Source of the DNA: Pseudomonadales bacterium
GTDB taxonomy: Bacteria > Pseudomonadota > Gammaproteobacteria > Pseudomonadales > Azotimanducaceae
Length of the DNA: 64,000 nucleotides
Direction of reading: 5' to 3'
Assembly: GCA_965214305.1 (NCBI GenBank)
Contig: OZ243949.1
Location: 2,515,962 to 2,579,961, forward strand
Shown: in pieces, positions 5,060 to 5,199 of the stretch
How positions within the stretch are numbered: the first letter of the stretch is position 1
Layout: every line of letters begins with the position of its first letter
Notes under the pieces: model-generated
What the model saw: only the letters and a program-made list of their open reading frames with translations
What the model was told of the DNA's origin: nothing
The model's database searches: none
Program-made: the position numbers and the translations under genes

Positions 5060-5199
5060 GGGAATTATGTAGCAAAATCCGCAAAACCCCATTGTGCATT
5101 TTGCAGAAAGTTTTGGGACCTATATATTCTGCCTGACCACGGCAAAGGTGGTATGATGAGAGCAGTCACAAAACTGGAGGATTCCAGATGACACGTTCA
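5060..5199 (+). promoter_or_regulatory. Portable 5' module copy 1: IS-type 26-nt inverted repeat, sigma70-like promoter, RBS, and ATG ACA CGT TCA
   Basis: 140 nt that match 8011-8150 with 4 mismatches. It contains TTGCAG (5101-5106), a 16-nt spacer, TATATT (5123-5128), GGAGG (5176-5180) and ATG at 5188. Confidence 0.5.

Follow-up and report, generated by a model that had tools for sequence, protein, structure and literature searches.

What does a 140-nt repeat that begins with an insertion sequence (IS) end do at the head of two genes whose products do not resemble each other? The question arises from a 64-kb stretch of DNA, called the window here, in which positions 5060-5199 and 8011-8150 align without gaps and differ at 4 of 140 nt, as the initial annotation had stated; a repeat search extends the pair to 5057-5208 versus 8008-8159 (97% identity). 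We propose that the repeat probably serves contingency genes of the homopolymer type as their 5' expression module and has come to lie on two unrelated cargo genes, A and B.

A shared 5' module precedes genes A and B

The two copies and their cargo are laid out as follows.

5060-5199, plus strand: class I 5' module, copy A (inverted repeat, promoter-like site, RBS, ATG ACA CGT TCA)
5060-5086, plus strand: IS1595-family terminal inverted repeat, copy 1, 27 nt
5100-5128, plus strand: sigma-70-like candidate site of copy A, TTTGCA-17-TATATT
5176-5190, plus strand: RBS and start of copy A (GGAGG at 5176-5180, 7-nt spacer, ATG at 5188-5190)
5200-5232, plus strand: poly-C tract A, 33 nt, proposed slip-strand switch and recombination joint; gene A out of frame
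5233-5731, plus strand: gene A cargo, read in the +1 frame with respect to the ATG at 5188 (signal peptide RARLAAILLLALLASPAMA, followed by an all-beta mature protein of 146 aa)
8011-8150, plus strand: class I 5' module, copy B (promoter-like site 8051-8079, GGAGG 8127-8131, ATG 8139)
8011-8037, plus strand: inverted repeat, copy 2, 27 nt, left end of element B
8139-8795, plus strand: gene B, 218 aa (MTRS-PPP, signal peptide TKLATFLLLAVLVAPLAA, FN3-like sandwich, Cys-rich C-terminus)
8151-8159, plus strand: poly-C tract B, 9 nt, in frame
29000-29026, plus strand: solo diverged inverted repeat of the same IS family, 3 mismatches

The IS-type inverted repeat (IR) at the head of each copy had been given as 26 nt; it is present, measures 27 nt and belongs to the IS1595 family. 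Its sequence, GGGAATTATGTAGCAAAATCCGCAAAA, was found at 5060 and 8011 on the plus strand, at 9351 on the minus strand with 1 mismatch, and at 29000 on the plus strand with 3 mismatches, the number of matches expected in shuffled sequence being 0. The solo IR at 29000-29026 lies beside a minus-strand gene fragment, and 54 nt from position 28999 match L051:7961-8014 (87%). The arrangement GGAGG-7 nt-ATGACACGTTCA-C(n) occurs at exactly two places in the window, 5176 and 8127 (expected, 0), which bears out the reported succession of GGAGG, ATG ACA CGT TCA, and a C-run in both copies.

The sigma-70-like promoter reported for each copy stands as a candidate, which we read as TTTGCA-17-TATATT/TATACT (5100-5128 and 8051-8079) and which matches only 9 of 12 consensus positions; we infer that this site is the promoter. 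It starts 40 nt inside the IS end and is the sole promoter-like site there, and copy A has a second candidate, an extended -10 (TGGTATGAT) at ~5151-5159. The -35 falls in a segment that is present only in IR-linked copies. A gene B paralogue at locus L051 has the module from TTTTGGGACC onward, with neither the IR nor the -35, and we therefore do not assign the promoter part to one source: it may be IS-derived or native to the B-type gene. The IR-linked module at locus L028 carries a similar GTTTTGGG..ATATA motif.

Similarity between the two loci had been said to stop at the C-run. This is the case for the high identity, but a weaker similarity runs for ~55 nt through the signal peptide. The predicted signal peptide belongs to the cargo, downstream of the tract, so the description of the module as a leader cassette has to be narrowed: its share of the leader amounts to four codons only. 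The module was not found outside this lineage. A JGI metagenome scan with ATGACACGTTCAC(8) returned one low-complexity contig, unrelated to the module, and Rfam gave no match over 4400-9500.

Genes A and B belong to different families

The leader of gene A ends in AMA, with cleavage predicted before EQC, and its ORF is intact through 166 codons; that of gene B ends in LAA, with cleavage predicted before QTT. Neither gene has a Pfam match. Gene A has 18 homologues and is modeled as an all-beta sandwich (pLDDT 77) with weak matches to adhesin and reeler domains; a comparison with PDB sequence profiles gave nothing significant. Gene B has at least 122 homologues, and its model (pLDDT 89) consists of an FN3-like sandwich and a Cys-rich C-terminal part. 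The top 50 PDB matches in a structure search with this model were mostly FN3 domains (E down to 8e-4, probability 1.0). By sequence there was no Pfam FN3 match, and the best hit of a PDB profile search, to the FN3 domain of DCC, had an E value of only 0.66.

Simple duplication would make A and B diverged paralogues that kept a conserved 5' end, and both are indeed small, presumably secreted, Cys-containing beta-sandwich proteins with similar signal peptides (RLAAILLLALLASPAMA versus KLATFLLLAVLVAPLAA). Against this, the mature proteins show no similarity by BLASTP (E 0.34), and a profile-profile comparison with hhalign matched 23 signal-peptide columns and nothing else. Each family has its own conserved residues, and the module copies are 97% identical while the cargo cannot be aligned. 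The mature proteins are thus unrelated, as had been suspected by eye.

A third unrelated family, C (24 homologues), has the same layout, and its profile matches neither A nor B. None of the three families is annotated, and the long MAG contigs that carry them form largely overlapping sets; in the protein database, gene B, gene A, and one C homologue are found on a single contig. In A, B, and C, many members have a proline run (P2-P9) that separates a variable N-terminus from the hydrophobic core, and many of their gene calls begin inside the signal peptide, as frame-shifted copies would. The earlier suggestion that one IS-end-led cassette sits on unrelated exported cargo in the manner of a contingency system is thereby supported, family C adding a third case and export being predicted from the leaders.

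5' ends and cargo are also combined across families. Gene C (L028:2360-3148, contig OZ244807.1) has an IS IR ~150 nt 5' of its ATG, and its 5' end, GGGAGAGAAAG-ATG AAC GCT TTA CCT A-C10-GCTAGCTAG, is homologous to the native 5' end of gene A (class II). Counting the loci described below, we saw cargo A behind 5' ends of class I (in the window), class II, and class III, cargo B behind class I, and cargo C behind class II. Elsewhere, one A gene and one B gene of the same genome have in common ~330 nt of a different 5' region, which takes in a 13-nt tandem array and the leader MSFHTIRMFPVAMLAAAL, and a leader PPCGxAQLKRLTALAA after the poly-proline is common to one B and one C member from different genomes.

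The 13-nt arrays of that A-family and B-family gene lie between the promoter region and the RBS (L053 ~2850-3000 and L054 ~2900-3000), with GGGGCCTCTCCAC repeated ~14 times and GGGGCCTCTCACC ~8 times; they represent a second repeat type that could tune expression. Further cargo families were sought among the loci collected for this analysis. Other long C-runs were seen there at L022:2736 (C21), L012:6181 (C17), and L043:3641 (C22), the first two of which precede ORFs with a hydrophobic leader (MKHSFF-C21-... and ATGGCTGGCAAAT-C17-..., respectively) that may represent additional cargo families. Three proteins (P0060, P0097, and P0114) have THTH beside the poly-proline of the leader, implying (CA)n dinucleotide repeats that adjoin the C-run.

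Gene A lies behind three different 5' ends

We looked for the module in related genomes and cataloged what follows it, as the initial annotation had suggested; element B, the IS-derived unit that carries gene B, was found at a second site (see below), and gene A was found behind other 5' ends, listed here with their surroundings.

L052 (OZ244807.1): GGGAGATAAAA-ATG AAC ACT TTA CAT AAT-C24, between a DUF1214 gene and an MFS gene
L055 (a 2.42-Mb genome): GGGAGATAAAA-ATG AAC ACT TTA CAT AAT-C29, between a DUF1214 gene and an MFS gene
L059 (a third genome): ATG AAC CAG GTT AAC CGT GAA TCA-C22, in frame, in a different neighborhood

L055:4922-6340 corresponds to window 5206-6623 with 97.7% identity, the match beginning inside the C-run. 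The gene A of L059 is 98.8% identical to that of the window, from the tract to the stop codon only. One mature A allele is therefore found behind three unrelated 5' ends, encoding MTRS (window), MNTLHN (L052 and L055), and MNQVNRES (L059), and the junction is always at the poly-C tract. Since homology starts in the C-run and the 5' ends differ, the module was grafted onto gene A and not duplicated with it. Gene A thus begins differently at its native locus, the breakpoint falling in the C-run; taken with the unrelated cargo, this makes simple duplication extremely improbable, and we reject it.

Between the window and OZ244807.1 (L052), gene A shows 80 to 94% identity per 100 nt, against 97 to 99% for the adjoining MFS fragment, which appears to indicate fast evolution of the cargo or replacement of its allele. 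The dN/dS of gene A in the same comparison is ~1.2, to which diversifying selection and decay would be equally good fits; that of gene B is ~1.1, from 13 changes.

Element B and a composite bounded by target-site duplications

The DNA around both genes contains the following further features.

4963-5051, no strand: 89-bp MITE, ends GGTAGTGGCTCA...TGAGCCACTACC, directly upstream of module copy A, with AAAAATTT on both sides
5052-5059, no strand: left target-site duplication of the composite, also right duplication of the MITE, AAAAATTT
5732-7618, no strand: captured chromosomal fragments in permuted order (3' part of an MFS gene, minus strand, to ~6623; 3' part of an MFS-acyltransferase gene, plus strand, 6613-7618)
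7631-8010, minus strand: IS630-family (DDE_3) transposase remnant, interrupted by element B (DDE_3 fragment 7720-7971)
8796-9281, minus strand: IS1595-family transposase pseudogene, zinc-ribbon and DDE fragments, internally deleted and frame-shifted
9325-9351, minus strand: IR, inverted, right end of element B and of the composite
9352-9359, no strand: right target-site duplication of the composite, AAAAATTT

Element B (8011-9351, 1,341 bp) consists of an IR, the module, gene B, a decayed transposase, and a second IR. The zinc ribbon (PF12760) and the ISXO2-like DDE domain (PF12762) are seen in 8743-9281 on the minus strand as frame-shifted, internally deleted fragments only, the remainder amounting to ~155 codons in two frames; both domains are intact in relatives that have the IR of element B. 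Lacking an intact transposase, element B is classed as a non-autonomous derivative. In Ca. Azotimanducus sp. OZ244807.1, the whole of element B, 97% identical to the window copy, sits at another site, between the coproporphyrinogen oxidase gene and exbD, and is flanked by a perfect 8-bp duplication, AATTGAAA. Element B is, judging from its sequence at these two sites, mobile. It had no match among plasmids.

The 8-bp sequence AAAAATTT flanks both 5060 (on the left) and 9351 (on the right) as a target-site duplication, and the left flank of 8011, TTTTTTTA, differs from it. For this reason, the 4,292 bp from 5060 to 9351 most likely transposed as a composite by means of the two outer IRs, and the empty target site would have read ...CCCGAAAAAAATTTCAGGGCGGTAAAGC... 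before the insertion. The 89-bp MITE, which itself makes 8-bp duplications, was placed in the left copy of the target of the composite. MITEs of 89 to 90 bp with the ends GGTAGTGGCTCA/TGAGCCACTACC were also seen at 4463-4552 and 27534-27621, besides a single end near 792, and their target duplications read TAGTGATA and AAAAATTT.

Within the composite, window 6613-7618 matches L055:2412-3416, so that the captured DNA is in permuted order. A tandem duplication or a circle, followed by a deletion from tract to tract, would be one path to this order. An assembly chimera, in which two loci were wrongly joined at a long C-run, might come to mind, as the join lies within a 33-nt homopolymer adjoining a repeated 140-nt sequence; however, matching 8-bp duplications bound 5060-9351, repeats this short are spanned by long reads, and in independent genomes this very point of gene A is where other 5' ends are attached. 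The bounding duplications and the independent junctions make a chimera very improbable, and we reject it.

A scan with the IR core, covering one genome per species, gave 49 loci, all in MAGs, from taxa that include Ca. Porisulfidus, Ca. Azotimanducus, Arenicellales, Paracoccaceae, Pedosphaera, and Dehalococcoidia; several of the IR-bearing records presumably come from sponge or coral hosts, to which their names point. The same IR bounds three kinds of elements, all with 8-bp target duplications: intact IS1595 copies, TnpB-only elements, and element B. Passengers often accompany the intact transposase copies, among them a methylase-HNH gene and genes for small secreted proteins, and 8-bp duplications were also found at L001, L004, L016, and L022.

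The TnpB-only elements are 1.2 to 1.3 kb long (L001:70-1366, L022:4847-6180, L010:3735-5036, L029:3965-5207, and L015:482-1690). They have an IS1595-type 24-nt IR, 8-bp duplications, and the Pfam domains Cas12f1-like_TNB and OrfB_IS605, without a DDE transposase, and are presumably mobilized by the IS1595 transposase. In L001 and L022, both translated in full, the TnpB ORF terminates inside the IR (...ADFAT-stop).

Other repeats were seen elsewhere in the window. A 1,284-aa ORF (9545-13399) with a lipoprotein-like N-terminus (LVAC) has three ~400-aa repeats, and two of the 1,200-nt units share 300-nt stretches with 100% identity. A TonB-dependent receptor gene (13406-16156) follows immediately downstream, and the insertion point of the composite is just upstream of the two genes. 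The ORF-rich stretch between aceK and the MITE contains three to four tandem 54-nt (18-codon) repeats (4131-4314), and REP-like palindromic intergenic repeats (...GCCTTCGGAATTCGCGGCTGCAAATCCGC...) occur at 16215-16288, 32467-32520, 36918-36976, 43172-43201, 45864-45942, 60035-60198, and other places.

The length of the poly-C tract sets the reading frame

The C-runs, whose difference in length the initial annotation had overlooked, measure 33 nt in gene A and 9 nt in gene B. Both begin 12 nt past the ATG, and they are the sole plus-strand C-runs of at least 8 nt in the window. With 33 C, the ATG at 5188 reads MTRS-P11-AR-stop and is out of frame with the EQCNAS... ORF of gene A, which lies in the +1 frame and would be reached with 32 or 35 C. 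The 9 C of gene B keep it in frame, and it reads MTRS-PPP-TKLATFLLLAVLVAPLAA and then QTTV.... In A and B, the wrong frames reach TAG or TAA no more than five codons past the tract; the sequences that follow the tract, CTAGACTAG in A, CTAAATTAG in B, and CTAGCTAG, close both of them. In A, B, and C, every predicted part of the signal peptide (K/R residue, hydrophobic core, and AxA site) comes 3' of the tract.

Tract lengths differ between assemblies. For element B, the count is 9 C in the window and 20 C in OZ244807.1; a second assembly of the OZ244807.1 locus, otherwise identical except for one 1-nt indel, gives 18 C. Neither 18 nor 20 is in frame; 19 would be. For gene A, four genomes give 33, 24, 29, and 22 C. 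Of nine loci read, four are in frame and five are out of frame. We infer from these assemblies that the tract would switch the genes by slippage.

The main caveat on the tract-length evidence is long-read homopolymer error, tracts of 18 to 33 C being at the limit of long-read consensus accuracy. If the tract were a proline linker and the genes were always on, out-of-frame lengths would be such errors. In favor of this, the assemblies are MAGs built from long reads, the two versions of one locus are 2 C apart, and 18 and 20 are each one step off the in-frame 19; as one of these assemblies has a 1-nt indel elsewhere, small differences such as 18 versus 20 may well be technical. Between genomes, however, the lengths differ by up to 11 to 24 nt (9/18/20 and 22/24/29/33), and in each of the three families gene calls are often frame-shifted, also in assemblies of other origin. 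Stops in both wrong frames right after every tract, and a pre-tract peptide that varies freely, fit a tract kept for its mutability and not for a linker, and we consider a permanently active gene with a linker unlikely.

Slippage of the polymerase, or of the ribosome, could instead yield some in-frame product at every tract length, the tract then setting the level of expression. In endosymbionts and in some IS elements, genes that are frame-shifted at long homopolymers are rescued by slippage during transcription, and the tracts here, at 18 to 33 nt, are far beyond the 8 to 12 nt typical of classical contingency loci. Short tracts of 9 to 10 C occur too, which speaks against such a role; we rate it somewhat higher than that of a linker but still rather improbable, and it can coexist with switching at the DNA level, which we prefer. 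Very long poly-proline stretches (10 to 11 residues) may also hamper translation or export.

The second caveat is that the window copy of gene A may be a dead by-product of the rearrangement of the IS region, never expressed, with only element B at work. The copy sits among gene fragments (permuted and truncated MFS and acyltransferase sequences and the IS630 remnant follow it), it is OFF, as are two of three close relatives, and its dN/dS is compatible with decay. Yet the 166-codon ORF is intact and 98.8% identical to the in-frame copy in another genome, the precise tract-to-tract join retains the full signal peptide, and similar 5' exchanges recur for A, B, and C in other genomes. A dead gene A deserves more weight than the other alternatives, while being clearly less probable than a module that was joined to a usable cargo gene.

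A proposed model for switching and spread

The reading that we favor separates a 5' unit from a cargo unit, joined by the poly-C tract. The 5' unit comprises the promoter-like site, GGAGG, ATG, and three codons, sometimes with the IS1595-type IR; the cargo unit comprises a K/R-containing n-region, a hydrophobic core, an AxA site, the mature protein, and a stop. As a complete Sec-type signal peptide is predicted 3' of the tract, the 5' unit would give transcription, a translation start, and a few dispensable codons only. Slipped-strand mispairing would alter the number of C, so that one-third of the length classes would read poly-proline into the signal peptide (ON) and the other two-thirds would run into TAG or TAA no more than five codons on (OFF). 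In the sequenced copies, gene B would be ON (9 C) and gene A OFF (33 C).

Two routes of spread can be proposed. Gene B would travel by transposition as the passenger of a 1.34-kb IS1595-derived element, mobilized in trans given that its own transposase has decayed. For gene A, recombination inside the poly-C would have swapped its own 5' end for a B-type module, the homopolymer acting as a homology patch for the crossover; the segment 5060-9351 would then have moved as a composite bounded by the outer IRs, again mobilized in trans. The likely role of such genes would be the stochastic on/off display of small beta-sandwich proteins, predicted to be secreted or surface exposed for A, B, and C, in a host-associated, phage-rich habitat.

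More speculatively, the poly-C tract may double as a phase switch and as a homopolymer "att site" that shuffles start-less, promoter-less cargo among expression modules, some of them on IS1595 ends, within and between co-resident symbiont species of several classes. We hold this broader idea as a possibility well short of probable; if true, it would mean cassette exchange without a dedicated recombinase and a community-wide pool of variable secreted proteins.

Most known contingency genes come from pathogens. The loci described here would extend their logic to uncultured symbionts of marine invertebrates and to small secreted proteins, including one with a eukaryote-like FN3 fold, and eukaryote-like proteins of the FN3 class are thought to mediate host contact. 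If the tract switches, each symbiont population would be a mosaic of cells with different surface or secreted phenotypes, with a bearing on host recognition, escape from phagocytosis, and phage pressure. The repeated joining of 5' ends and cargo at a homopolymer suggests a recombinase-free route to modular gene families, and element B illustrates how an insertion sequence can capture and spread a poly-C gene of the contingency type. There are also practical warnings: gene callers cut many poly-C genes short at an internal Met, and the homopolymer length in long reads decides whether such genes appear intact.

Comparison with known systems

Our literature search found no report of repeat-mediated phase variation in sponge symbionts, nothing on Azotimanducus, and no paper describing exchangeable 5' modules and cargo joined at poly-C. 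Phase variation of surface proteins by repeats is well known from the poly-G of PilC and the CTCTT of Opa in Neisseria and from the poly-C/G contingency genes of Bordetella and Campylobacter. Like these, the genes described here have a slip-prone repeat a few codons past the start, inside or before the signal peptide, one-third of the length classes in frame, predicted exported products, and length differences between strains. In contrast to them, the tracts are much longer (up to 33 nt) and lie upstream of a whole, presumably functional signal peptide, the tract is also the exchange point for 5' ends and unrelated cargo, and the hosts of the genes are uncultured marine symbionts and not pathogens, with switching proposed from assemblies.

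The vlp, vsp, and vsa systems of Mycoplasma place a conserved promoter, repeat, and leader block before divergent exported proteins for combinatorial surface variation. A conserved 5' block before divergent exported proteins is likewise found here, but the repeat is in the coding region and not in the promoter spacer, no site-specific recombinase was seen, and the cargo families are unrelated and not variants of one family. Cleavage is predicted at AxA before Q or E, and the leaders of A (AMA/EQC) and B (LAA/QTT) have no L-x-x-C lipobox, which rules out a variable lipoprotein of the Mycoplasma type.

In integrons, promoter-less cargo is also placed behind a shared expression signal; the joint here is a homopolymer in the coding sequence, and the cargo also comes without its own start codon. 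Neither an attC-like site nor an IntI integrase was found among the ORFs and Pfam scans of 1-16 kb, and we reject membership in this class.

Finally, the ISPna2+ and ISNwi1+ subgroups of the IS1595 family (ISfinder) carry passenger genes, and the elements described here share with them IRs of ~25 nt, 8-bp duplications, and extra genes inside the IRs, as well as a zinc-ribbon and DDE transposase, which element B shows as fragments and relatives with its IR show intact. Element B differs in that it has lost the working transposase and that its passenger is a proposed phase-variable secreted protein reading inward from the IR, and two ends form a 4.3-kb composite with captured chromosomal DNA. 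As with known IS-end promoters, a candidate promoter lies in an IS end beside a gene, but the one proposed here would read into the element toward the passenger and not outward. What is new in this system is the tract as a recurrent joint, its carriage on an IS end, and its occurrence in uncultured symbionts of several classes.
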